DNA of 64,000 bases from Lobosporangium transversale (lineage: Eukaryota). Position 1 is the first letter of the stretch. Each line of letters opens with the position of its first letter. The notes beneath the pieces are model-generated. The model had not been told where the DNA came from, did no database searches, and saw only the letters and a list, made by a program, of their open reading frames with translations. Of this stretch, positions 18,927 through 59,038 are shown in pieces. The translations under genes were made by a program, and so were the position numbers. Where the stretch lies: assembly GCF_002105155.1 (NCBI RefSeq), contig NW_019028998.1, positions 186,001 through 250,000 of the forward strand, written 5' to 3'.

Positions 18927-19556
18927 GTAAGAAGAGTGGACTAAAGTGTCATGGAGAAAAACGTGGTAGGTGACTAATGAAGACTTGGAAAAGATGAATG
19001 AGCAAGAATGCAATTAGACCAGATCAGATGCAATTGAGAAAAGACTCGTGAAGGTTAGGCGTTTGAATTGGGAAATAACAAATTTCTTTAAGCCCATAAA
19101 ATCGTATCAACGCCCAATAAGAACGTATTCAATGCATGAGATAGCATATCTCTTTCCAACAAAGCTATCACACTGAGGAAATGCAATTGATGTCCCATCA
19201 CCGAAGTGGATTACTTTACAACACAAGTTTTTGAAAGAACGTAAAAACCGTCAGTGGCACAGTAAACTCCTTTTGATGCTTTTGGGACTGAGTGAGCAAT
19301 TAACGTGAATCGTCCGCCTGGATCTGGCAAGGCAAAGCACTCTTTTTATTTGGTAGAAAGGATCCTTGGGACAAAAGCCAATAAGGATTGTGAGTAGCTG
19401 TGAATAGCAACGAAAGCGAAGAAGTTTAGACGATTCACAACATTTAAAATAAACTGTAACCCTTAAGAATAATAGAAAGCAAGGAAGACGATCACCAAGG
19501 ATAAGGGCGTTACTGAGTTTATGAGAAAATGCTATACAAGGAACCGCGATTGAGCA

Positions 19557-19887
19557 TTTTTCGATAACAAGGACCCTCAGAGTTACAGGATTTATTATCT
19601 ACACTTTACGAACAAAATGCCCTAAAGACTATAGACGACAAACAGTTACTGCTGTGCGAATCGTTATAAATAGGTTGGCCCATTTAAGGTCGCAAATAAC
19701 GCGGTATCTAATGACCATAGCCACATCGTTGTACTGCCACAATACAACATCCTGTTCATAAATCATATCAGCATTGAGTGGCCCCTTGATCCGCTGAGAC
19801 TTGTGCCACGGCTCTACTCCCTACTTGGTCTGTTGTGCGCAAAGGTCATCCTTTAGCTGTAGTCCTTAATCATGTCGAGTCCTTTGA
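19557..19887 (-). mobile_element. Decayed 3' end of non-LTR retrotransposon (distal copy, tRNA-Trp stack)
   Basis: Short T5 tail then cGATAACAAGGACCCTCAGAG..GGATTTATTATCTACACTTTACGAACAAAATG, homologous to the 3' UTR at 41272 onward. Adjacent ttataaataggttggcccatttaagg resembles the copy at ~40612-40640. 5' limit approximate. Confidence 0.75.
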
Positions 19888-20432
19888 TTTTTTTTTTTTT
19901 TTTTTTTTTTTTGGTAAAAAGGACCCAGGGTCATGGGATTTATTTCTCACACTCTATGAACAAAATGCTCCAGAAACTATAGTCAATAAACAGTTATCAC
20001 TGCACAACCGGCGAGAGCTGCTGCATCCATGATTTCATAAACCCTGACCGCCGTGGTTGGTACTTAAAGTCCACCTTTCCGACGTGGCCTGTTGCGCAAC
20101 GCGACAAATTATGCACTATCCGTAGCCATCAGAAACTTCATTCCACCCAGCCACTCCATCACGTCCAGTTTAGTTTTCCCAAGGTAGCTGTCCCGGACTC
20201 GGTTATCCGCGATCTTGTAGATTTCTTTTACATTCAGCTTCTGTCTTTGTCTGAGGGAAGGGACAAGGAAATCATTGCTACTACGTCTGTGCTCCCCAAC
20301 ACAGTTGCCTCCTCTAGCGCGTTTGCTCGTAGCAGTGATTCCACGAGTCTTTTCCCATTCAACGGTGACTTTACACCGTTTGTTCCAGATTTCTGTACGA
20401 CCGAATTCTTCTATGGCCTTGACGAAGCGCCC
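19888..20432 (-). mobile_element. 5'-truncated non-LTR retrotransposon (3' UTR plus last ~107 codons of ORF2)
   Basis: T25 tail 19888-19912. Colinear and highly similar (about 90% by eye) to 41259-41793. Encodes GRFVKAIEEFGRTEIWNKRCKVTVEWEK...KLDVMEWLGGMKFL. Homology stops at 20432. Confidence 0.93.
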
Positions 20433-20492
20433 ATGAACGTTTGACAAAAAGTTTTTTTTTTTCACGCACTTACACAAAAAAGATAGGGATCG

Positions 20493-20533
20493 TCAGGATG
20501 ATCACGTGCGGCTCTCGCTCTTGTTTTATACCC
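20493..20533 (+). promoter_or_regulatory. Upstream element of tRNA-Trp: TCAGGATGATCACGTG (E-box/CDEI-like) plus TATA-like TTTTATACCC
   Basis: CACGTG at 20503-20508 and TATA-like element at about -39 to -30; a matching arrangement lies upstream of tRNA-Ala. Confidence 0.45.
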
Positions 20534-20562
20534 TGTTGAGGCCTTCTAGGCTCCGGTTTAAT

Positions 20563-20635
20563 GGAGGATTGGCGCAATTGGCAGCGCGTCCGTCTCCAAA
20601 GCGGAAGGTCGGGAGTTCAAGTCTCTCATTCTCCA
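20563..20635 (+). tRNA. tRNA-Trp (CCA), intronless
   Basis: Cloverleaf: acceptor GGAGGAT/ATTCTCC, D arm GCGC/GCGC, anticodon arm TCCGT-CTCCAAA-GCGGA, T arm GGGAG-TTCAAGT-CTCTC; TTTT terminator at 20642-20645. Confidence 0.95.
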
Positions 20636-20655
20636 ATTTCCTTTTATAAAATGAA

Positions 20656-21246
20656 GGATTAATCTATTTGGCAGCCCATACCAAATATAGTAATTTTTGC
20701 CTCTATTTGGCAGCCTACTTCTGGGGGCTGCCACTTAACTTCGCACTCTTGGGTGGCAGCTGGGCTGCCAAATACATTACTTTTTTTTTTTTTTTTTTTT
20801 GATAAACAGGGTCATAACATCAGTGGTAAAACAAGCAGCGTTCTGTGGATACATTGCCTTGCACAGCTAATGCCGCCGGAGGTACTAAGGGCAGCGGCGA
20901 TGACATCTTCACAAAACAGCCTTCAATGTACACGGTTAGGGAATGGTTTATTGAAGACGTCTAGGTAGTAGGTGAGACGCGTTTGCTCCGAGCGAAAACC
21001 TCTCATAGGCATTGATCTCCAAATGGCACCTCCAAAACTGTATGAGCGACCTACTTGAAAAAAAAAAAAAAATAAATAAATAAATAAATAAATAGTTAGA
21101 GGCCAAATAGCCCTGGGTAGGCTGCCAAGTAAATAATGAATGTTATTTGGCAACTGGGCTGCCAAAGAGAGTCTTGAAAGTTGATTATATTTGGCAATGG
21201 GCTGCCAAATAATATTTAGCAACTAGGCTGCCAAATAGATTAATCC
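20656..21246. mobile_element. Non-autonomous TIR DNA transposon (MITE, Mutator-like), family 1
   Basis: Perfect 21-bp TIRs GGATTAATCTATTTGGCAGCC (20656-20676 / 21226-21246); exact 9-bp TSD TAAAATGAA (20647-20655 / 21247-21255); many subterminal TATTTGGCAGCC / GGCTGCCAAATA repeats; no ORF. Confidence 0.92.
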
Positions 21247-21270
21247 TAAAATGAAATGAAAACAACTTTT

Positions 21271-22070
21271 GATGGAGTTATTTGCACGACTCCATACACA
21301 CCTTATTTACATCGCAAATGATTTTTTATTGGGATGAAGTTATTTGTACGGCCCCCGTGCAAATATCTTTTTCCTTTTTATTGCACGGGAGTGTTTTATA
21401 TGGAAATGTCGGTACCCTTAGTGCTATAGGTAAGGTCACTCATTCCAAACCCAATTGGGCTTGCTTTGTCTGGAACTACTAGCAGGCGCCGAAGAGTAAC
21501 TTATTCAAGTGGGCTTTACGCTTTCTGGCGAATGCTAATAGTTGTAGTTATGTGATGAGTGCAACAAAGCATAGTATGTGACCAATCTAGACAACCTTCA
21601 CTGAGGATAATCCTATGTTGATGGGAAGCACAGGAGCTCCTGTTGAACTTGTTAACATTCAACAAAAAAGGCTCACTGCTGTAGACCAATGTATCTTTTT
21701 GGTCATAACATCCAGCTATAATCCTATAATCCAGTCACAGTAACGGCTAGAGATGCATCAATGTATTTATGTGATCCTAATGTTTCCTGCCTATTGATGT
21801 TTTTATTGAGAGGAAGCTCACCAATTAAAGGCGGATTTTTTCTTGAAGGCTGAAATAATAACTCCTCGTGCGAATAAAAAAAATATATTAATGTGTATGG
21901 AGCTGTACAAATGTCTTTTTCCTTCTTTATTTAGTCCCAGAGTCGCATGAAGAATAACAGCATCTACTCTGGGTTACGTATGACCTTGATAAGATAAATA
22001 TTCTGGTAGTATTTGATGCTTGTGTCGTGGAAGGCTTCCTGGTAGTGGTATTAAAGACTGAATTACATAC
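21271..22070. mobile_element. Fragments of TIR element family 2 (two left ends plus internal segment)
   Basis: GATGGAGTTATTTGCACG at 21271 and GGATGAAGTTATTTGTACGGCCCCCGTGCAAATA at 21332 (identical to 45754). 21928-22070 is homologous to 47158-47325. Confidence 0.8.
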
Positions 22071-23890
22071 CTGATAAATTCCCCCTATTTTGTCGGATAT
22101 GTGGGAAGTTCTCTGAGACGGAACAACATCTGCTCTTCAGTTGTCCCAAGAAGCTGGAAGTGTGGCAGGGCGTTATGAAGAAATTTTTCGGAGAAAACGA
22201 CTGGTCAGCCTTCCTACTGGAGTCGCTATTCTATGTCAACCCGATGAGGATCAATCCACCAACAATGTGCCTGCCTTCTTGTTCTTTAGTACCATCCTGG
22301 CAACAATCCGAAAATATCGCCATATCTGTGTCCTTCAAGGAGAAGACTTTGATGTGCCACGTGTCTTAGCCGGTATCGTATTTCCCTGAGGCAGGTATGC
22401 GAAGTAAGAGGTGTTAAAAACTATAGGGAAATATTACTTTTGTACACAAATATTTGTTTTTCATTTTGCATACCAACTAACAATGCCCTGCTTGTGATAG
22501 TTCAGACTTCGAGCTACCGAATACTATGATGTTAAGCAATAACGTTTAATAGCGAAGCGACGATAATAAAATACCTGTGGTTTACTATAGTACTATTCAA
22601 TTTGATAGGAGTTATATTCCTTCACTTATTATGGGCTTCAGATGGGAAGTTGATGATCTGCAATGAAAATATATGGCTCAGCACAATATCTTCTACAAAA
22701 GCTGACACTTAGATCATAAAATTGGACCGCTACTGTCGATATCCAATATCAAAACCAAAAATGCCATATGGTTTTAACGCTTCTTACTTTGCATACCTGG
22801 CTCAAGGAGAAAGCTCGTTCTACAATACATGTATTGGAGCATCTATGGAGCAAGAGCTTTTATATAGGCGGATCGAGGCTGATAGAAAGCAATGGTTTGA
22901 TTTGTCCGTTTTGAACTTCCATAACTGAGTAAATGACTAGGTATATGTATACTTTCCTTACCAATATTACAATAACAGTGATAGACCATATCCTCCCTAG
23001 CATTTCTTCCACCAAGATCAAAAGGCATCATGCAACCACCGTCCATTGCGACGAGGCAAGTCCTCGTTGAGATATTAAGGTAAAAGTAAAAAATTAAAAC
23101 ATTCACTTAATTCTGTATCCCATTCGTTCAGTAGATATTGTTTTATTATCAATCCGCTCCAGCTAATATTACAATGTTGTGGTCGATATCAAATATTAAT
23201 AGTTAAATATTTGTCATGATTTGGCTAATATTTTAAAGTTTCTTTAATATCATGGGTCAAATCGGATCTTTTGTGCGAAATACGTGTATGGCATAACTTC
23301 GTCCGTATAAAGGGCAAAAATTTCCATTATAAATAAATGAGTTCAAGATCCTGTATTGCCTTAAAACTTTTTTTCGGCGTGTGTATTGCCGGTCAAAATA
23401 AATAACCGAAAACTAACTAAACTAACTGCTATGGAGCCAATCTGACTTCTTTATTTCTCCAAATAAAAATAACTCTTGAAGACTTACACATGATCCTAGC
23501 GTCTGCTTGGTGGCTCCCATGGCATCATTTGATGGTGTTGAGGGCTTGATTTTTATCCGGTATGCTACATGAACTTACAATGTTTAAATTCATCAACCTA
23601 TGATATAGAGTGGAAGCATTATCTTACTCCTTCCTCGCTCGCTCGCTCCTCCCCAAGTTCCATTATTGTTATCACTACCACTTGTTCCTGTATCTTCCCA
23701 TCAACCTTCTTTTCCTGAACAATTCATCTTCTATCTATTCACTTTGAACTTTTAGCCCAGTCATTAAGCAATAAAACAAACAAACAAAAAAGCTCTCTTG
23801 TTTATACTTTTGCTGCTCTTCCCTTCTTTCGTTTCTTTTCATCGCCACTGTATTTCGCTTCCTTCTTTCCCTTTCACTCGGATATTGACC

Positions 23891-30467: not shown

Positions 30468-33169
30468 TTACATAGCAAGTGTGCCGTGAGTACGGCGCAT
30501 GCCAGGGAGTCTGTCCTGCTCTTTTAATCTCACATCGTTCAGATCGAAAGCAGTGCTGGCCCAAGGTGCGTTGACGTTCATGGCAGCCATAGCATTAGGA
30601 TCCTCCCTAAGTGGCTGACCAACCTTGAGCTCCATGTGCTTAACAGGATCCAAGACACAGAGACCGTTCTGGTCAAAGATTACACGTGATGTACGGTTAT
30701 AGTGTCCACGGTTCCTCTTGCGCTCATTCATGGCCTTGGTCTTCTCATCTGGACTGACTTTGTTGGAGACGAAGGACGTAGCGGAGTCAATTAAAGCACT
30801 AAATGTGTTTTTGCCAGTTCTGATACGAGTGTCACGGATGGTGGTCGCCAGAGCCTTATCACCAGATGATAAAGTCTCTTTGATTTGCGTCTCGAGAGCA
30901 TGGGCAATAGCGTTCTTGACAACGGTTTTGATAAAGGGTTGAGCTAGTGCATACATGAATGAATGCTCCGATCTGCGCATCTTGATCGACAGTGCATGAA
31001 TTTTGACTTTGACGTCTTCAATCGTGAAAAGTGAAGGGGTCTCTTGATCCTCTGGCGTTTTATGGCCCATGATCTTGATGTCCAAGCCTTTTTTGTTGAT
31101 CAAGACATCAGCGATACCTCGGTCTTGGAAGCGGAATCCCTCCTTGGTTTTGACATAGTAATCAACATCACGGATATTGGCCTCAAGACCCTGGATCGTC
31201 ACGCTAAAGTCATGCTTATTAGTGTCAAGCGAGCGATTAGCGTTGCCACGTGGAACCATACGGATTGTATTATTCATGTTCATCTCAAACAGACGAGGAA
31301 GCAAATCGGTACTCGTCAAGATCATATTGTCGAATACAAGATCCACCTTCAAATCTGAGTATTCAATACGAGGGACAGGGATGAACTGGAAGGACTCCAT
31401 CATGGAAGGTAGGAGAACATAGCGGAAGTCATCAAACAAGTGAGGCTTGAATGCTAATTTTCCGTTTCTAAGAGATAAAAAATTAAAAATAAAAAAATCA
31501 GATGTTACCACTCTATACCATTTTAGGAGCCAACCATAGCCCAAAACGCGTGCTATAAGCACGATAAAAAGCCTTACTTATCATAAAAGAGATCATGAGC
31601 GAATTTTTGGAAGTTGGCAGAGACCTCTTGGGAGCGAGGATCCGTATTAAGCTTCTCAATAAAAATCTGTCCTTCCCGCATGATAACATCTGTGTCAGAC
31701 TTGTACTTGACGTTTAAGAGTTGTCGGCCTTCATCGATCAAAATAGACCCATCATTATTGATCGTCTGAGAGGTTACATAGTTCGGCTCACGGAGTGCTC
31801 TGGTCAGGAAATTTGAGACATTGTTGACATATTGGTTCAGTTCTGGATCTACTAGTGTCTTATTCCACATGTTCTGGATGTGGGCAATAATCGGATCCAA
31901 AGCATAACCTTGTGCCCAACGTTGGAGTATTACTTTAAACTCAACAATAGCTGCCTCAACATTAGGATCTAGATTGTTGGATACGAGGTGTTAGAGGATC
32001 AACAGCGTCCAAGTGATTTAAGGGTAAAAAAATCTTTGAGCAACAAAAAATTCAACTAGGGCAACCATAAACTTACCGTGAACGACCTTGTTGGCTTCAG
32101 TGCTGATGTTTCCAGTAGGCTGCTTGGCACGATGGCGCCAAATGCCGACCAAATTCATGATAGAGTCAATTGCAGTTTGGTACTGAGGCTCAGATTGAAT
32201 CTGACTGATGACTAGTTTTAGTCGTTCGATCAAAGCAGATCGTTGCTCTGGAGGCAGCTTGGTGTTGGCATAGTTAATGGCGTCCTGCTGGGTTTGAGAA
32301 GCCCGGGTTTGAGCTTGGGCCTTGAAATCCTGGGCCTGTCTAGCCAATTGCTGTTTCATGTCTTGGGTTTGCTGCCTAGCTGAATCCATTGTGGCATTGG
32401 AATGGTCCATGAATTCTTGGCGTGTATCTTGAGCGACGGCTGTAGGATCCTGTTTTGCACCAAGGGCCACGCTCTGGATCTTATCCGTGACACGGTTAAT
32501 GTTATCTTGAAGCCGAGAACCGCCCGATGCACTTGTGGAGGTCGCGCTCTGTGTAAGGTCGTTGGTTTTGTTGGAGACCCTCTCGCCTACCCCTTGAGCT
32601 GTAGAAGCAACCTTATCGGCACCTTCATTAAAAACCTCCCTGAGTAACTGGAACAGCTCGTTCAAAATGGATCTAAATTCAGCGTTTGTAGTTAGAAGTT
32701 TGGCAACAGCAACCAAATTATCCAAGGTCTCTTGGCCTTCTTGTTTAGCCTTCTTTTGGGAAACACCAACGTCGAGAGAAGGGGCCTGAACATTTTGGGA
32801 AGCCGAAGTTGAAGCCTGGGTACAATGGTAGATAAAGTTCTGGAAAAGCTCTTGCTCGTTCTTCTCATAAATGATGCCACGAGTGGTGCGCATGAGCTCC
32901 TGGAAGTCCTTGTAGAGTGCACGGCCATCTGCTGAGAGCATATGGGCGCGAGCCTCAAGTGAAGGCGAGTTCTGAGCCATAGCCAAGAAATGATCGAGCT
33001 GCTCGTTAGTAGGGAGACGGCCCTTTACGAGTGCTTGGAGGCATTCAAAGAATTTTGTCTTTTGGTTGCGATCGACTTCCTTAATATGTTGAGGGATTTT
33101 GGCACCGCTATCCGCGATAGGGACATTGCGGTATGAGGATTGTCCTTCAGCGGGTCTGTTGTTGGACAT
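30468..33169 (-). CDS. Conserved fungal protein, DUF4449/DUF5923-like, multi-exon
   Basis: GRLPTNEQL, KNEQELFQNFI, GKLAFKPHLFDDFRYVLLP, FIPVPRIEYSD..VDLVFDN motifs as recalled for this family; three large ORFs joined by GT-AG introns. Confidence 0.6.
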
Positions 33170-40503: not shown

Positions 40504-40525
40504 ATATTACATACGCCTCTCTTTA

Positions 40526-40896
40526 TTTTTGATAACCAGAGCCCTAAAGGTCATGGGAATTTTTTGCTACACTCTACACTATAGATAATAAACAGCTATT
40601 AGAAGTAGACTCTATAAATGGGTTGCCCTATTACTAAGGGCGCCCAGCCGTTCCATTACTGTCAGTTCTAATTGTCGCCGATAGCTCCCTCGCTACTCTT
40701 TGGTCAGCTTCCGCCCTGATCGCTTTCACGTCAGCTGTTCGTCGTTATCTCAGGGTAGGTCCTAAGAAATCACCTCTGCTACATCTGTGCTACCCAACAC
40801 AGGTACGTCCCCTGGCGCGTTTGCTCACAGAGGTGATGCCTTTAGTTCTTTCCCAGTCGACAGTGACTTTACAGCGTCTGTTCCAGATCTCAGTCC
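40526..40896 (-). mobile_element. Decayed 3' end of a diverged non-LTR subfamily (distal copy A, tRNA-Ala stack)
   Basis: T5 tail then GATAACCAGAGCCCTAAAGGTCATGGGA. Minus strand translates TEIWNRRCKVTVDWERTKGITSVSKRARGRTCVG*HR...DFLGPTLR*...ADQRV / LTVMERLG, homologous to the ORF2 C-terminus at 41470-41760, with stops and a frameshift. Confidence 0.88.
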
Positions 40897-40927
40897 TTTG
40901 CACCTCCAGAGTTCCCCAAGGGTTTGC

Positions 40928-41258
40928 TTTTTTTTTTTTTTTTTTTTTTTTTTTTTCGTGTTAACAAGAACCCACGGAAGCGAGGAATTTATTTCATAAT
41001 CTCGCTCTAAATCAATTATATCGCCCTCAAATCCACTGGCATGTGGATCCAAATCTTGCGGGGTTGGTCTGAAACTTCTACTTGGATTCCGTCAAACTTT
41101 GTGATCATCGCTGTCTTAGTCGAGTCGGTGGATGGGGAGATGTACCGCTGGTTCGGCCGGGGGGTGGAATATATACCTAAGACGTGTGGCCAGCCAGGCG
41201 ACTTAGGGTAGTGTACCCACGATCTTAGCCTTAACGGAAAACACTAGGCTGCCTCGAA
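40928..41258 (-). mobile_element. Short poly(A)-tailed retroelement (middle copy B, tRNA-Ala stack)
   Basis: T29 tail 40928-40956 then TAACAAGAACCCACGGAAGCGAGGAATTTATTTC, related to the family 3' end and carrying AATAAA on the minus strand. The rest shows no visible homology to ORF2. Confidence 0.65.
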
Positions 41259-44200
41259 TTTTTTTTTTTTTGATAACAAGGACCCTCAGGGTCATGGGAT
41301 TTATTTTCTACACTCTATGAACAAAATGCTCCAGAAACTATAGTCAATAAACAGCTATTACTGCACAAACGACAAGAGCCGCTGTATCCATGATTTCATA
41401 AACCCTGACCGCCGTGGTTGGTACTCAAAGTCCACCTTTCCGACGTGGCCTGTTGCGCAACGCGACAAATTATCCGCTATCCATAGTCATCAAAAACTTC
41501 ATTCCACCTAGCCGCTCCATCACGTCCAGTTTGGTTTTCCCAAGGTAACTGTCCCGGACTCGGTCATCCGCGATCTTGTAGATCTCTTTTACATTCAGCT
41601 TCTGTCTTTGTCTGAGGGAAGGGACAAGGAAATCATTGCTACTACGTCTGTGCTCCCCAACACAGTTGCGTCCTCTAGCGCGTTTGCTCGTAGCAGTGAT
41701 TCCACGAGCCTTTTCCCATTCAACGGTGACTTTACACCGTTTGTTCCAGATTTCTGTATGACCGAATTCCTCTATGGCCTTGACGAAGCGCCCTGCCATA
41801 TATGTAGCTATCCTTGTTGTTGTCTTGAAGCCAACTTTCCAACTCTGAGCAATGGACTTGGGCGTAAGTCCATGGTAAATGTCCTGCACAGACCAATCTG
41901 GTGTGTGCTCTCTCTCTTCCTCATCATCGCCGTTCCTATCACCATGGCGTCGTACTTCTCGCACACCATCGATATGCATCTCCAGAGTTTTCCAAATGTA
42001 GTCCTCCTCTGCCGCAGTAAAAGTTGGCTCTTTTGTCCTTGGTGGGTCTACACCTCTCTCTCTGGCCCTTTGTGCTTGCTCCTGCACTGCTTTCAACTCT
42101 TTCCTCCATGTCCTCTCCCCTATCACATTCACATTTTGGATTATCTCCTTCCACTTCTCGGCCTGAGTCTCCATCGTCCTTGGACATCTCCAGATGTGCG
42201 ATGTGTCTTCATCCTCTGTCCCACACACTCTGCAGTTGCCATCTTCATAAAGGTCCGGCCTCCAGTGTCTCATATATGACTGTGTAGGCAACATTCCATG
42301 GAGTTTCTTGATTCTGTGCGCTCGCTTTTGGCAGTCCGCTGGGCTGGTGAAGAGTCCTTTCGGTAGGTTGCTATCATGAACAATGTTCATAGTAGCTCGC
42401 CAATCAATTTTTGTCCAATCCTTAACATGCTCCTGCGTCCTGTTCTGGGCGATCCAAGTGTGATGTGTACGAGTTGTTGACTGTAACTTAAGGATCTGCC
42501 TTAAGTCATCTTCCGCTGGTACACCGTTGAACTTTGCATGGCAGTACATGTCATTATGCTCCGTTATGTTGATATCCCATAGCTCGCCATAATGTCCATG
42601 TTTGCTGCTTCGTCCGCTTCTTCGTTCCCTCTATTGCCGGCATGTCCTTTGACCCACTCGACCGTGACTTCCGATCCTTGTTGAATAAATGCGTTGTGTA
42701 TAGCTGCCCACCATACTGCATACGGTGATCTAATACGTTGTCGCAACGTGCTATCCACTCTGCCTCGGACCAATGCTCGGAATTGAGTCACAACTGCGCT
42801 GTTATCAAGTCGGATTGTCATAGGTCTGTTTCGTGGGCTGATAAGTATTCCTGCCAACAAACCAGCTAGCTCTGCCTTTGTCGAGGATGCGTTGCCTGCT
42901 ACTCTACCAGATAGCGCAGTGTAAAACTCACCCTCTTGTGTCTGGACTACCACACCAAATGCCAACTTACTCTTTCAGTGCCAATATCTTTGAGAGATCC
43001 ATCCGTATAAATGACATTACCCGGCTGGGTATTGTACCGTTCCCTTTGGCGTTGGATTTTCTCCTCGGTATTGGCACTAATGATAACTCCATTTGTGTCC
43101 CTGGCTAGGCCTCTGTTGACTTCAGGGATCACTTTTAGGCACGGTGTCTCGTTGGAATCCAGGTCGACTTTTGCTCTCCTTAGCAGAGCTTGCTCGCTCA
43201 GACCCTCATATCTCCTTGTGTTCTGGGTCCGGCGTCTCCTCGCTTCTTCGCGGGCTCGCATGCGTTCACTATGCCTTCGCTCTCGGTCCTGGTGGCGTTC
43301 TGCTCTTCTGACTATGGCATCTAACTTTGCTCTTTGTCGCCTAAGATTATGTTCTCTGGTTGCTCTGCGCGCCTCTTTCATAACAGCTCCTCGTCTCTTT
43401 TTCCGCTCCTTCTGTTGATCTAGAATCCACTTAATTCCAATTGGTGGCTCAACAGCTTGATTAGCCGGTGATACTGTCAAAGTTCTGTTCGCTGCCTCAT
43501 CTTTTATGAATTGGTTGAGTGCACGAATCGCTTCTCGATCTTCGTCTTCTGTATCCCCGTCTACCGAGCTGACATAACTACTGTCGCTGTTGCTGTCATC
43601 ATCACTGACGTCTAAGAGTGCCAGTTTCCTCCTGTTCCATTCTCTTGCATGCCTACCCACATAATCGTTGTCGAAGCAAAAGTTTTGAAGTTGGTTGAAC
43701 CAGAATGGCGAAACTTTAGGCCCTCCGTAACGGGTCCTGAATGCGTGCCATGAGATCATGTCCTCCTTATCATCCGTAAGTATTTGATCCACAAAGTATA
43801 CCATACGCTTGGTGAGCGCCTTCCATACGTGTGGTAATTCTCCGTTTAGCCATTTCCATGTCGAGAGAGCGTTGTGTGGGAGACCAAATTCGGCTGCGAT
43901 CGATAGGTCGAAAGTAATGTTACGATTCTTCATTTCTTCACAAACATTCGATATAAAGTTGTGGCGATACTTTTTGACACGATGTGGCTCCAAAGTTGGC
44001 GAGACTTCCATCTTATTCCTGTGCTGCAGCATCAGTACTCGTGTCCGACATATCCGTCCCATTACATTGCTGTCATTAAGTCGAAGCGCCAGGGTAGATA
44101 TTTGTTCTTCCGCTTGAGCGTTCGCCAAGTCTTTGATGGCATACAATCTATTGTGGTTCATAGTGCTGTTTGGCGTAGTTGATGGCATACGTGCTTTCCG

Positions 44201-45472
44201 CTTACACAGTGACATATACTTACCAGTCATCTTCTGTAGGAACGTTGGTGGCAACATTTGGGCCGAAATCCTATACAGCACCTTTGGGATGAGCACATTA
44301 TTGACAATATACGTTGTCTGCCGATCTGTCAGGGCTTTGGACCGGAGAATGTTACAGGTCGTTTCTATTTCCTGCTCCACTATTTGCTGTGTTGCTGTTG
44401 GATTTCCTGTTGCTGTGACCCAAACACCAAGAATCCGTACCGATTCATTCTTTTCCACTGGTCGGATCTCTTCTGTAGGTGTCCCAAATTTCAGCGTGCT
44501 CCTCCTATCCTGCTTGCTGTTGATACAGATGACCTGCGTTTCCTTGGCGTTCACTTCCACCCCGTTAAGAATGAAGAATGTCGTTGCAATGTCAAGTATC
44601 TCCTGCATATGTGCTTTGGAGTCCGATATCCATGTAGTATCATCCACGAAAGCAAGGCCAGTAACTGATGGTGTCCCTCTTGGTCCCTCTAGACTATATC
44701 CAGTGCTACTGTCTATAATTTCACACAGGAGTGCATCATATGCTACTCTCCATAAAAGCGGACATTCCACTCCACCTTGATCCAAACCGCACTCTGGATG
44801 ATACTCGTCAGTTGGTCCGTATTCAGTAATCACCCTGTTCACTTTGGAAATGGCGATGTTTTCACATAGGCGTATGAACTGTTCAGGGACCTGGAGCCGT
44901 CTTAGTCCGCGAGAAAGCATCCCATCGGGGGCGCAGTTGACAGAGTCGAAACACCGTTTCATGTCTTGGAGCACAATCCACTGTTCTTTCTTGAACTCTC
45001 TTGCGTCTTCCATTGCCGCTTGCAGGATATGGATTGGATCCTTAGTGGTAGTACCTTTAAGAACAGAGAAGTTTGGTCCTCGTAGAATATCGTGCCTGGC
45101 CATGATCGCGCTTAACCTATTTGTTATTACTGCAAACATTATTTTCCGTGCGTGCTCCAACAAAGCTATCGGCCTTACCTCTGCCATGTTTCCTGACCAT
45201 TCTGGAGCTTTTGGTATGCAATAGAGGAGCCCCGTCTTCCAATCCTTGGGGACGTCTTCTTGCACGATAGTGGCACTTATGATTTGGAAGAGGATAAAGA
45301 GCCCCTGCGGTCCTTGGTGTTGGATCATTTCGTTCGTAATGCCTGACACACCAGCTGCCTTGTTTTTGGGTGCATCCAGGACCACAGCTGAAAACTCATT
45401 TCTGCTTGAGTCACAACTATCTATGAACAAAGGGCTTGCCCATCCTGACCCGAGCGGAGCAGTTGAGTATAT
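41259..45472 (-). mobile_element. 5'-truncated non-LTR retrotransposon: RT + RNase H + CCHC zinc finger, poly(A) tail (proximal copy C)
   Basis: T13 tail 41259-41271 with AATAAA ~30 nt inside. RT motifs PKNKAAGVSGI, RPIALLE, QDMKRCFDSV, GLDQGGVECPLLW, AFVDD, RILGV. RNase H YTDGS, SSTKAEL, LDN, WVKGHAGNRGNEEAD. CRVC..EDTSHIWRC. No endonuclease or ORF1 present. Frame open to ~45472, so the 5' junction is approximate. Confidence 0.95.
41470..45472 (-). pseudogene. Retrotransposon ORF2, split in three by two 1-nt frameshifts
   Basis: ORFs 42947-45430, 42564-42965 and 41470-42549 join into one polyprotein if one base is added near 42963 (ERVS/xAFGVVV) and one near 42601 (EAA/KHGHYGELWDINITEHNDMYC). 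Confidence 0.85.
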
Positions 45473-45518
45473 TCAGAATGTCACGTGAAGCCGCTTGAAC
45501 TATCATAATTATATACCG
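45473..45518 (+). promoter_or_regulatory. Upstream element of tRNA-Ala: TCAGAATGTCACGTG (E-box/CDEI-like) plus TATA-like ATTATATACCG
   Basis: CACGTG at 45482-45487 and TATA-like element at about -39 to -29; same arrangement as at tRNA-Trp. Confidence 0.45.
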
Positions 45519-45546
45519 GGACACTCAGCAGGTTATGAAACCATAC

Positions 45547-45618
45547 GGGGTTGTAGCTCAGTGGTAGAGCGCTCGCTTTGCATGCGAGAGGCCCGGAGTT
45601 CAATCCTCCGCTGCTCCA
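45547..45618 (+). tRNA. tRNA-Ala (TGC), intronless
   Basis: Cloverleaf: acceptor GGGGTTG/CTGCTCC with the G3:U70 Ala identity pair, D arm GCTC/GAGC, anticodon arm CTCGC-TTTGCAT-GCGAG, T arm CGGAG-TTCAATC-CTCCG; T6 terminator 45626-45631. Confidence 0.95.
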
Positions 45619-45648: not shown

Positions 45649-45730
45649 GGATAAATCTATTTAGCAGCCCATATCAAATATAGTAATTTTTGCCATTATT
45701 TGGCAGCCTATTTTTTGGGCAGCCAAATAA
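45649..45730. mobile_element. Left end of TIR element family 1 (truncated)
   Basis: GGATAAATCTATTTAGCAGCCCATATCAAATATAGTAATTTTTGCC..TATTTGGCAGCCTA aligns with 20656-20717 in the same orientation; no right end seen. Confidence 0.85.
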
Positions 45731-45753
45731 TGTTTTGCAAAACTAATTTGAAA

Positions 45754-47784
45754 GGATGAAGTTATTTGTACGGCCCCCGTGCAAATAAATTTTTGCTTAT
45801 AAAAAAAATTATTTGCACTGCCCCGTACACACTCTATTTACACTGCTCCCCCCGTACAAATAAAAAAAAGTTATTTGCACGGGGGGTCTTTTTTTTATTT
45901 GCACGGGGTCTCTTTTTCATCTACAAGCAGCAACGTGTATCCTACAGACTACATGATTCTGGCTTTATATAAATAAGTGGAGGTGAGTTTAGAGTAGAGA
46001 GGGGTCTGGAATTATTACTGGTGGAAGTTGCAGCGCCGTGGGAGCTGCCAAACAGCTCATTTGTGACATACAAAAATACTACCATTAGACCCATATAGCG
46101 TATACGATGATTTAAATTACCACTCACGTGGGGCAGACAAGAACCCTCTCTTTGTCCTCCTTCTTAGTTGGTGCAATGTTTTAACCTAATTGATATAACT
46201 TATTATGTAATATGGAGCTAAAGTTCAATAAATTTACCCTTTTATTAATGAGGCAATGTGGATAATCACTGAAGTTTTTGGGCAGTACAGGCTGAGGGAA
46301 AACGGCAAGAAATAAGATTGAAGACAGTGCTTCTCTTCATTACCATTTCAAGTGATTGTACAATATGAAGCTGGTCCTTTAGACGCAGTGAGCATCTACA
46401 TGTGCTGCTGAGTATGCAATACTGCGTGCTAAAGACGAACCAAGGTAAGTTGGCTATGATAATAAACTTGGAATGTAATGAGACAAAACTAAGGATTGTT
46501 GCGATTAGCAGTCATTTATATGGGTTTTTACTATAGCTAAGGTTTTTACCCTTTTTATTTAACGAAGATCCCTGGATCATAATAAAGACATCTTTTTTTC
46601 GTTCTCGCTAATTATTATGACCCTGGCATATTTCAATAACAGAAAAGAATATTTATGTCTCTTTTCTATCACTATTAGTCACGGTTATGCTATTAAAGTA
46701 TTTTAGCCACTAAGATATAGAGATATAGGTGATTGTGCACGTTCGGCTTTGAGTGCGAACTGTCACCAACTATCAAAAGACAAGTAATATCGGGTAAGAA
46801 GATAGATATTCCACAAAATAAGCTGAGGTCTACCCATTGCATTTTGATGAATTTGATAAACAGAAAGGGAAAAGAAAGAGAGTAGGTAGTAACACGGCAC
46901 GCTATACATCGTAGAAATGAGTATGATTGTATGATTGTTTGTATATCTACCGAAACAAACTACACGTTAGAGGTTCCTAATAACTGAACTCATCGTTGTG
47001 TGCTTAATAGTGTACGGAAATACCTAAGATATATGCACGCGTTAAATGAAAGAAAGCATCAGGGAACCATCCACAATCTATAACAATGCAACCAACAAAA
47101 GTGCAAAGTAAAGCTGCATAGTATATTTCAATTATAGATAGATCATTTGTAATTCTGTATTTAGTCCCAGAGTCGCATAAAGAATGCCAACATCTACTCT
47201 GAGCTACATACGACCTTGATTAGATAAATATTCTGGTCAGTATTTGATGCTTAGGCAGCGGCTCTAGATCTAAGCCTGTGTCGTGGAAGGCTTCCTGGTT
47301 ATGGTGTTTAGGGCTGAAATAAAGACCCCGTACAAATAAAAAAAAAGACCCCCGTGCAAATAATTTTTTTTTATTTGCACGGGGGGAGCGGTGTAAATAA
47401 GGTGTGTACGGGGCAGTGCAAATAGATTTTTTAAATATTTGTACGGCCCCCATGCAAATAAGAGGTGTACGGGCCCGTGCAAATAAGAGGTGTACGGGCC
47501 CGTGCAAATATCTTTTTTCAATTTGGAAAAGATTGATTGCCTTGTTGCACTCACCATGTAATTACAAATATTAGTGTTTGTCAGAAAGAGTAAAACCCAT
47601 ATGAATAAGTTGCGCTTCGGATAGAGCGACGACAATTGGACTTGAAATGAGTGACTTTGCTTACAGTACCAAGGTATCAACATAAAGAAACACCCCGTTA
47701 TATATATATATATATTTTTTTTTATTTCCATGGGAGGAACAGTGTAAATAAGGTGTGTACGGGGCCGTGCAAATAACTACATCC
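45754..47784. mobile_element. Non-autonomous long-TIR DNA element, family 2 (probably nested copies)
   Basis: Ends GGATGAAGTTATTTGTACGGCCCC (45754) and GGGGCCGTGCAAATAACTACATCC (47784). ~45800-45920 is an inverted copy of ~47316-47435. Repeated GTGCAAATA/TATTTGCAC units, including 25-bp tandem units at ~47452-47510. No TSD and no intact ORF. Confidence 0.8.
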
Positions 47785-48280
47785 AAATATATTGTAAAAA
47801 TATGGTCGCCGTCGCTGCAAAGGAAAAATGGGTCCAAATGAGAACCACCCATTGCCATTTTTATTGTGTTTACTGTCTTCATCCTGATTCGCTGCTGGCA
47901 TTATACATGTCTTCTCTCAATGGCGCGGTTTTATTGATCTTTCATAATAATCAACATGCATTGCAGCGACGACAAAAAAAGGGCGGCTCAGTCTAATCGC
48001 ATTACCAATAGTGAATATTAATAACTAATGCTTCCTTCTTGCATTCTTGAGGAGGAAGAGCTGTCATATATTTCGTCTAAATGGACATTATCAACAACAC
48101 ACGCAGTATACAAAGCAGTTTTCATACAGCGATACAAGATCCTGTTCTGATATCCTATTGCTAATTTATCCTGCGGATCATGTCTATTCATAAAATTGCT
48201 TTCTTATAGCTGGGGCATAAAGAGATCAAAAAACTCGCTGCATGATTATTTAACCAAGGCGTAATATTTTAATGCAATGC

Positions 48281-56654: not shown

Positions 56655-59038
56655 GTTGGTTATTGCCGCGCTGTCAACAAGCTCCCGTTACCTCCTGCTT
56701 TCGTGTCCGATACCTCTACTCTTCTACAAAGACATACCCGTCCTTGCTGAAGGCTTGGAGGTAGAATGATCAACGGATGTTCGTGTACAAAATTACAAAC
56801 GCTGTGACCCGCCATCACACTGCGATAACAGAATGCTTGGCACAGAGTGCATATAACCCTTTTGGTTTAGCTATAATAGATAATTGAGGGAATGAGCAGG
56901 TAGGAGAGGGAGAGTGTCAACCAGCATTCATTAGTTATCGACAGCTTATTTATAATCCCCTAGTTCGTATCACTTCTAGGGCGGGGATATTATTAGTGCA
57001 GTTGCTTTTTGAGGTGGTATAGGCACTATGGGCTACAGCCCTTGTAGATCCAAAAGCTCTAGGTAAGCTGTTGAGGCCGTACTTCAAAACCTCACTTCCT
57101 AAGGTAGGCCATCAAGGGCCTTCAACGGTTTGGCAGATAAGTGCATCACAGTTCTGGGCGGGAATAACGTTCGGGTCTTAACAGTTTTTTGTAATTAGCA
57201 CGCCTGCTTCAAATCCATATTCTCTGCCCGTTCAGCTGTACCAGAGGAGGCATGTCGCAAGCGTATACTGCGGACCCAGCGGCCAGTAGCCAGGTTCGAT
57301 AAGGTTTTTCATTTTGCTCATGTAGAGATATTCCTTGACCCTTGCATTTTCTCTTATGTTTCTAGTTCCTTAAGGCACTTTCCGGTACGCCTAAGCGCCT
57401 GAACCCTCTTTGATGCGCTTACGGTGAATTGCCTTTTCACTAGCTTCGGTACCGCTCAGAAACAGAGCAGTATTTCAGATGCTAAAGTCCGCCTTGACTC
57501 GCCTTTGTTGGCATGGGTAATATATATCTTACCGCAAAGTGGCGTATACTTTCCGGATACTCATGAAAAAGCACGTCTGAATGTTTACACAAACACGATA
57601 TCATCAAAATTTGACCGAATCCATATCTAGGACCAGAGTTAAATTTTTGTTTAGAAATGGCTACGAACAAGGGGTGGTCCTATACATATATATTGCAAAA
57701 GGCCCCTTCAACGAAGCTTCATAGCGACGTCCTAGGCTCTTTGGTTTCATCTCCTTAGGTAGCTATATTTGGTTTATATAGCACAGGCAGGGATCGGTGA
57801 TGGAGACCATAACCTTTCCTTTGAAAAAAGTGTCCAAAGGCTATGGATACCTATCTTCTACTCGTGAATGTGCAGAGTGAATAATAAGGATACTTTCCAA
57901 CTTTCTATATGCTTTGATTAAGAAGGTTAACTCAGCCCTACTGTAATTATTTAATCCTACTATAGGCGTCAAGAAAGCTAAGACTCAAAACAGTCAATAG
58001 TGCACTCTACTGAGTCTCATTGCAATTGTCAAAAGAAAAGGAAAGATAAGCGTCGATGGTGATATCATCTATTCAATACTGAACAGTGGTATATGTGCGT
58101 GATAATCTTTTACAGTGAAATGGTGTGAGGTGCTTGGATGCCAAAGAGAGCCGCAAACCCACAATCCAACAGTCAGACGCTTTCAACGATAAATATTACA
58201 AAAACCATATTGCGCTCTGTGAACAGCCGTGATTGATCAAGGAAGAAAGTCGATTTTTTGACCAACACATGCGAAATTATCTATTATAGCTAAACCAAAA
58301 GGCATATACAATTGAAGCAAGCATTCAGCCGTTATCGCCAAATAGCATAACTGCTGCGCCAAAGTGAAGATGAGAGACGGCACGAAGACGTGAGGCAACA
58401 AGGAGAACCATATAGAGGTTAGTCCAATCGAAACGAGCACTGCGGCAGGGAAGTTGGCCCTCTCCATTGGCTACGGTCCTAATTCAAACAGCATCAATAT
58501 AACAGGACCCTCTAGAGCTGATGAAGCTGTACAGATGGAAGAAATATCAAGAGCAACTCAAGAGGTCCAAAGATGAGATGCGTCCAAAAATGCGATCCCA
58601 AAAAGGACAAAGAGGTGAAATAGGGAAGAATAAACTAGAGGATGTAGGTAGGAAAGGGCTGTCGTCAACCGATCGACGCATCTGATCACAACACTCGATA
58701 GCGGGACATTGAAGGCAATCGCTGATAAAGCCTCGAATGATCGCGTAGAGGTTGTTCGTTTTGGCTTTTGAGAGGTCATTGTTGGTGTAAGTGAGCTCCA
58801 TGTTTCCAAGGAGTGCCTAGAGTAGCAGAATTATGGTTATATGCACTCTGTGCCAAGCATTCTGTTATCGCAGTGTGATGGCGGGTCACAGCGTTTGTAA
58901 TTTTGTACACGAACATCCGTTGATCATTCTACCTCCAAGCCTTCAGCAAGGACGGGTATGTCTTTGTAGAAGAGTAGAGGTATCGGACACGAAAGCAGGA
59001 GGTAACGGGAGCTTGTTGACAGCGTGGCAATAACCAAC
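56655..59038. repeat. 204-bp near-perfect inverted repeat (56655-56858 / 58835-59038) around a 1976-bp spacer
   Basis: Base-by-base comparison shows one mismatch in 204 bp (GCCgCGCTG vs GCCaCGCTG). No TSD in the outer flanks; no long ORF inside. Confidence 0.93.

Follow-up and report, generated by a model that had tools for sequence, protein, structure and literature searches.

Is a LINE retrotransposon directed to tRNA genes in this fungal genome, or do its copies only survive beside them? The question is raised by the DNA upstream of a tRNA-Trp gene, where two truncated retrotransposon copies are stacked one behind the other. It was examined in a window of 64,000 nucleotides, the whole stretch of DNA that was analysed.

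The window contains two tRNA genes, both on the plus strand and both called by ARAGORN and Rfam: tRNA-Trp(CCA) at 20563-20635 (Rfam score 64.1 bits) and tRNA-Ala(TGC) at 45547-45618. The spliced genes, among them ORC3, an HRI-like kinase and an M1 peptidase, mark the content as eukaryotic. Sequencing-run evidence comes from four runs; one of them, X7, is uninformative, leaving three. Over 20598-21242, X7 differs by C-to-T changes only and the tRNA gene is fully converted, as in a bisulfite library, so that a methylation data set may exist for the species label. Three samples differ at 0-1 positions over 19000-19877 and thus may be one strain. The case for targeting consists of two loci only, in a window that was picked on account of them.

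The stack upstream of tRNA-Trp

The inner, younger copy (19888-20432, minus strand) is a 5'-truncated LINE of a subfamily designated A. It consists of a 25-nt poly(A) tail, read as T25 at 19888-19912, and a 520-nt body (19913-20432) made up of the 3' UTR and the last 107 aa of ORF2, which are 92.5% identical to protein P0002. Over 535 columns it is 94.4% identical to the 3' end of the LINE at the Ala locus (41259-41793). Past 20432, other family copies run on with the letters of the Ala copy in two runs. The body ends at 20432 and a gap of 130 nt remains before the tRNA gene at 20563, exactly the junction distance given by the first-pass annotation.

The outer copy (19557-19887, minus strand) is decayed and belongs to a sister subfamily, B. 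It retains the last ORF2 codons, the stop and about 310 nt of 3' UTR; its tail is eroded to T5 (19557-19561) and its homology ends at 19873-19884. Identity to the family end is 82% over the terminal ~96 nt; the remaining 230 nt have no match to the Ala copy as DNA or as protein. These 230 nt align to the ORF2 stop and 3' UTR of L001 and L003, two relatives from metagenomes, with scores of 88 and 86 where shuffles reach at most 34 and 39, and also to the outer copy at the Ala locus (score 68; shuffle maximum 36). Multi-copy relatives of 19718-19880 are present in all three informative runs. The match to the L001 and L003 3' UTRs, together with the missing match to the Ala copy, places the outer copy in the sister subfamily and not in the family of the Ala copy. 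The original description, two antisense copies of one family with 5' ends toward tRNA-Trp, is therefore right as to LINE identity and orientation but has to be amended as to family, given the L001 and L003 alignments.

The stack upstream of tRNA-Ala

Three minus-strand elements lie upstream of tRNA-Ala. The outermost, a B-like copy at 40522-40927, is 76% identical to the inner copy in DNA and 62% in amino acids, and carries stops, a frameshift, an internal deletion and an eroded tail. The middle element (40928-41258) ends in a T29 tail, and its 3' end resembles the family distantly; the tail profile matches it at E 0.025 although the element was outside the training set. It has no ORF2 homology, and its link to the non-coding partner element of L001, described below, is not significant (7 of 200 shuffles match the score); it is possibly a non-autonomous partner.

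The inner LINE (41259-45409) is cut just before the reverse transcriptase (RT) at its 5' side and was delimited by Pfam and by tblastn with a full-length ORF2. Its body of about 4.15 kb encodes RT (RVT_1, E 2.4e-19), RNase H (RNase_H, E 7e-9) and a zinc-knuckle-like motif at the C-terminus, in a frame broken near 42965 and 42603. The 5' junction falls at 45406-45409, or -137 to -140: homology to five ORF2 relatives sets in only at 45406, and a residue scan shows that the conserved motif EEWY..M..P, just before the equivalent of 45406, is missing. The position derives from protein homology to relatives about 60-70% identical, with a DNA-level uncertainty of 3-4 nt. An innermost Ala junction near -70, as previously suggested, is not supported by the end of ORF2 homology and the absence of the motif. 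The stop-to-stop frame extends to 45472; it is open into host DNA by chance and is probably the source of the "-70" value.

The isotype and the extent of truncation differ between the loci, as first noted, with 0.52 kb retained at Trp and about 4.15 kb at Ala. Family tails of 25, 29 and 13 nt and bodies of 0.3, 0.52 and 4.15 kb combine poly(A) with variable 5' truncation.

The element and its relatives

APE and ORF1 are missing from the window copies by truncation. They are found in a full-length relative, L001/P0042 (64-73% identical), with Exo_endo_phos above the cut-off and an ORF1 with sub-threshold RRM and CCHC matches. The best solved-structure match of this relative is human L1 ORF2p (E 2e-19). 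Judged by its domains and sequence matches, the element is a predicted LINE of APE-RT-RNase H type, and Mortierellaceae supply its closest named relatives. An organism name accompanies 38 of the 85 profile hits: Mortierellaceae in 20 cases and Geosiphon in 18. In a quick tree of 48 rows, all of them search hits, the window RT falls in a 14-row clade (SH-aLRT 98) whose three named members are all Mortierellaceae. The host is accordingly likely a soil fungus of the Mortierellaceae, an assignment drawn from the element and not from a host gene. The viral contig collections contained no relative of the LINE, and prokaryote genomes contained none by protein; 27 motif matches, all in prokaryote records, were taken as chance, since the similarity ended with the motif and ORF2 had no hit there.

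From 127 candidates a metagenome scan yielded five loci; in one of the five, L005, the 5' side of the element is bordered by host DNA. The element in L001 is full-length, with an ORF1 of 599 aa and an ORF2 of 1896 aa (APE-RT-RNase H). This LINE lies directly behind the poly(A) of a ~890-nt non-coding partner that ends in the common family tail, and in L002 the order is LINE tail, partner, tail; both contigs, which lack a tRNA, are collapsed repeats and show signs of misassembly. The partner (L001 1-910; L002 541-1450) has the first bases of the LINE as well as its 3' tail. LINE and partner both start with an inverted repeat of the 3' UTR, 19 nt long and perfect in the LINE (L001 912-930), through which the RNA ends may pair, unless it is an assembly artefact. 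The partner's head has a T-arm-like hairpin and A/B-box-like words; there is no Rfam match to a tRNA in it, and the relaxed ARAGORN calls were noise on all four inputs. In a Gamsiella protein, P0043, the stretch from RNase H to the C-terminus is repeated in tandem. Like the arrangement in L001 and L002, this shows head-to-tail stacking among relatives.

L005 carries a decayed, distant relative (41% aa identity) that starts at most 279 nt downstream of a tRNA-Trp, on the same strand. That tRNA is 98.7% identical to the tRNA-Trp of the window. The locus supports association with tRNA genes, not the upstream geometry.

Spacers and junction distances

Between the innermost copy and the tRNA lies host DNA on the plus strand. 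At Trp it spans 20433-20562 (130 nt) and contains a T11 run, ATCACGTG at -62 (20501-20508) and a TATA at -36; at Ala it spans 45410-45546 (137-140 nt), with GTCACGTG at -67 (45480-45487) and a TATA at -37. The innermost junctions, at 130 and 137-140 nt, are thus within 10 nt of each other. A narrow modal distance had been predicted, and the two sites agree with one another, but the value is about -130 to -140, not -70.

The prediction of -70 at Trp had depended on T11 (20452-20462) being the tail of a third, very short insertion, a suggestion that did not hold up. When the DNA following A/T runs was compared with the family tail, T11 scored 14, true tails 60, 43 and 20, and unrelated runs 6-12. 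T11 is one of 41 A/T runs of at least 10 nt in the window. The 130-nt Trp spacer behaves like its shuffles against element ends (in each of ten comparisons its score is reached by between 9 and 196 of 200 shuffles) and is near single-copy depth in the runs. Conceivably a very old insertion has left a trace there, but no evidence points to one. In the Ala spacer a 12-nt match to the family 3' UTR was rejected, having been equalled by 22 of 200 shuffles.

The boxes in the two spacers are instances of RTCACGTG, which we take to be the consensus of a bHLH factor of Cbf1 type. Together with the TATA at -36/-37 this motif is a possible upstream element of tRNA genes in the host fungus. It occurs three times in 64 kb, at -62 and -67 of the two tRNA genes and at 30683, and a one-mismatch box lies at -71 of the L005 tRNA (L005 about 179-186). 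The distance from junction to box (68 nt at Trp, 70-73 nt at Ala) is tighter than that from junction to tRNA (130 versus 137-140 nt). Hence the true anchor could be the box, or a nucleosome positioned by it, with tRNA genes being hit as carriers of the box and not through the Pol III complex. We regard this as unlikely. The link is based on n=2, with a Trp-to-Ala spacer match that 11 of 200 shuffles equal; the third site, at 30683, has no LINE copy nearby, and no supporting paper was found in the literature searched. Anchoring at the box is a variant of the targeting model, and its probability is partly counted within the figure given below for targeting.

Copy counts and other repeats

In 64 kb the family 3'-end profile has five matches at E <0.03, each of them on the minus strand and inside one of the two stacks; the profile's training set held four of these five, the Trp outer copy among them. 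The sole other match in the window has an E of 5. Similarly, tblastn with full-length ORF1 and ORF2 gave five segments, each inside a stack. Neither search placed a family copy in the remaining intergenic DNA of the window. All five copies are upstream, antisense and have the 5' end toward the tRNA, and both tRNA genes are occupied. Single-contig depth of 238-246, against 6.7-11.4 for single-copy DNA, corresponds to roughly 21-36 A-type copies, depth being a rough proxy. With the genome taken as 37 Mb (contig letters as proxy), the probability that a given tRNA would by chance have a copy in antisense within 150 nt is 4e-5 to 7e-5. A family member present as a single copy is cut at the equivalent of 19974 and abuts a MITE-like repeat, with no visible tRNA, in all three informative runs, which tells against a strict rule.

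The downstream sides of the tRNA genes are also occupied. A high-copy MITE-like element (20656-21246, strand unassigned), presumably Mutator-like by its hallmarks, has a perfect terminal inverted repeat of 21-22 nt and a 9-bp duplication, TAAAATGAA. It begins 21 nt downstream of tRNA-Trp, and a related fragment (45651-45732) lies 32 nt downstream of tRNA-Ala; self-BLAST finds the element nowhere else in the window, and it may have a tRNA bias of its own. With MITEs gathered downstream of both tRNAs, the two loci accumulate elements of several kinds. Inside the MITE is an insert of 280 nt (20781-21072) bounded by T20 and A15(TAAA)n. Its depth is high in X1 and X4 and zero in X3, which indicates that the insert family is polymorphic. 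The end of the insert is faintly like the LINE tail, with none of the alignments significant.

Several further repeats were noted. Downstream of both tRNAs, over a distance of about 2 kb, a second family of short inverted-repeat elements forms a cluster (21267-21380, 21892-22071, 45754-45932 and 47153-47787). The two arms of a 204-bp inverted repeat (56655-56858 and 58835-59038) are 99.5% identical; the whole spans about 2.4 kb and is probably a DNA transposon of recent origin, bounded by its long terminal inverted repeats. Abutting T-run/A-run pairs at 1321-1353 (T16-A17) and 11928-11967 (T13-A27) are perfect hairpin-forming homopolymers.

The crowding by MITEs bears on the possibility that the LINE integrates at many sites, or in open chromatin, and that its copies survive mainly in the gene-free DNA beside tRNA genes, where MITEs gather as well. 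The MITEs 21-32 nt downstream of both tRNAs, the family copy that abuts a MITE-like repeat and the downstream position of the L005 relative would all suit such retention in a safe harbour. Selection alone, however, gives no reason for one orientation in five of five copies, for innermost junctions within 10 nt of each other or for successive 5' ends to lie 3-21 nt from the tail that follows, and the other intergenic DNA of the window is devoid of copies. Survival without targeting is consequently judged improbable.

Order of insertion

The outer copies are decayed at both loci, with eroded tails and, at Ala, also with stops, a frameshift and a deletion. The Ala inner copy matches the high-depth family letter at 21 of 22 sites, among the sites listed. 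The older 5' end is 3-14 nt from the next tail at Trp and about 13-21 nt at the Ala outer copy. This proximity would put the original landing site of the Trp outer copy at about -133 to -144. It seems, when the order is read from decay, that new copies insert between the tRNA and the older copies.

Decayed copies outside and young ones inside fit landing at a fixed distance and not landing in poly(A) tails. The latter would be a Zorro3-like process in which a founder arrives near each tRNA by chance and later copies enter the tails of earlier ones. All within-stack junctions do run from tail to 5' end, complete 5' ends lie directly behind poly(A) in L001 and L002, and the Trp spacer has A11 on the element's sense strand 19 nt from the junction. 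But insertion into tails predicts younger outer copies, and the outer ones are decayed; the innermost 5' ends have no flanking poly(A); 37 of the 41 A/T runs of at least 10 nt have no family-like tail behind them; and two chance founders at equal distance would be required. Taken together, these points make poly(A) targeting very unlikely.

The two loci also represent separate insertions, as had been argued: isotypes and truncation differ, flanks are unrelated and 27 substitutions separate the inner copies. That both stacks descend from one event copied by segmental duplication or gene conversion is scarcely credible, despite inner copies 94% identical and a B-like outer copy and related downstream MITE at each locus, because isotypes, truncation points and outer-copy structure differ and the spacers and outer flanks are unrelated.

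Target-site duplications (TSDs) are usual, but not universal, in APE-type LINEs. The earlier failure to find a clean one was borne out, the longest shared word being 2-5 nt in eight of eight junction pairs. TTTGA (5 nt), shared at the Trp inner copy, was rejected as a TSD because it is out of register. None of the seven joints listed for the four runs skips a stack to reveal an empty site.

A model for targeting

The occupation of both loci, the single orientation, the similar distances and the decayed-outside, young-inside order make targeted integration likely. We propose that the LINE is probably tRNA-gene-directed and integrates at a roughly fixed distance upstream, with a probability of roughly 70%. 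ORF2 supplied in trans by a full-length copy elsewhere would carry out target-primed reverse transcription, with frequent 5' truncation, as in general LINE biology. By analogy with TRE5-A of Dictyostelium, and given targeting, the chances are about even that the Pol III transcription complex sitting on the tRNA gene acts as the tether of the LINE particle.

Insertion at -130 to -140 is far beyond the expected seat of TFIIIB, which suggests that the nick is made in the first accessible DNA upstream of a protected zone. This zone would comprise TFIIIB at the TATA (-36/-37) and a predicted factor on RTCACGTG (-62/-67), and its outer limit would probably be at the first upstream nucleosome. Each further copy would insert between the tRNA and its predecessor and push the latter outward. 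In the portion of PMC5391098 consulted, the TFIIIB footprint on yeast 5S extends from -40 to +5. A cut at -130 to -140 would therefore need a longer reach, like that of Ty1 into upstream nucleosomes.

A more specific version holds that an RNase H-bearing Mortierellaceae LINE clade evolved tRNA targeting independently of amoebae and other fungi, and that its cut, roughly 135 bp upstream and past TFIIIB, is positioned by an RTCACGTG-binding factor or by the first nucleosome. This is offered tentatively and is, as a whole, doubtful. If true, it would mean a new LINE tethering route, and an undescribed upstream element of fungal tRNA genes common to several subfamilies and their non-autonomous partners. 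Targeting itself, if true, would imply a tether other than simple abutment to TFIIIB. With a young multi-copy family and an intact full-length relative (L001) at hand the model is testable, and it could yield a site-directed insertion tool for Mortierellaceae.

Comparison with known systems

The TRE5 elements of Dictyostelium discoideum insert upstream of tRNA genes with the 5' end facing the tRNA and form tandems without inserting into each other, as described in parts of PMC5391098 and PMC5911963; the latter, in the part consulted, also reports contact between TRE5-A ORF1 and TFIIIB. TRE5-A, B and C, which are L1-group non-LTR elements, are like the LINE described here in upstream site, 5'-facing orientation and tandem stacking, a likeness of placement and domains as far as the available text describes them. 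The TRE5 ORF2 is an APE-RT-zinc finger protein described without RNase H, whereas the LINE clade here has RNase H. According to the same partial sources TRE5 lands 40-54 bp upstream (38-98 across dictyostelids); the LINE lands at 130-140, about three times as far, and its host is a fungus.

Two other dictyostelid elements are NLTR-A (Dictyostelium purpureum) and NLTR-B (Polysphondylium pallidum). They are non-LTR elements that insert upstream of tRNA genes and, in the sections of PMC5006619 consulted, have RNase H downstream of RT, as in the LINE here, the comparison being by description. By the same sections NLTR-A inserts 2-6 bp and NLTR-B 39-64 bp upstream, as against 130-140 for the LINE. 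No dictyostelid is among the named hits of the LINE searches. Table 1 of PMC5911963, in the portion available, lists non-LTR tRNA-targeters only in dictyostelids, at 2-64 bp upstream, and that of PMC5006619, likewise in part, gives upstream non-LTR distances of up to 98 bp. A distance of 130-140 nt is outside all the non-LTR ranges seen in these tables, so that by distance the LINE does not group with TRE5 and NLTR elements.

The fungal systems differ in other respects. Ty1 of Saccharomyces cerevisiae inserts into nucleosomes in a ~1-kb window upstream of tRNA genes via Pol III contacts, according to the part of PMC5911963 consulted. Like the LINE it inserts well upstream, but, on that account, it belongs to the LTR elements, has an integrase and covers a broad window, where the LINE shows a single orientation and what looks like a narrow site. 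Candida albicans has Zorro3, which is, like the element here, a fungal L1-type LINE with a target preference. It targets poly(A) tracts and has poly(A) on both flanks, in the excerpt of PMC7175516 used, whereas the innermost copies here do not. For tRNA genes, the consulted portion of PMC13269885 names Ty1/Ty2 only. The literature searched, which lacked most subscription journals and Repbase, held no report of a tRNA-targeting LINE in Mortierellaceae or any other fungus.

If targeting is true, the LINE would represent another origin of the tRNA strategy, in an early-diverging fungal lineage, or a deep kinship with NLTR-B. Among these systems it probably stands apart by its host lineage, its RNase H content and its unusually long distance from the tRNA gene.
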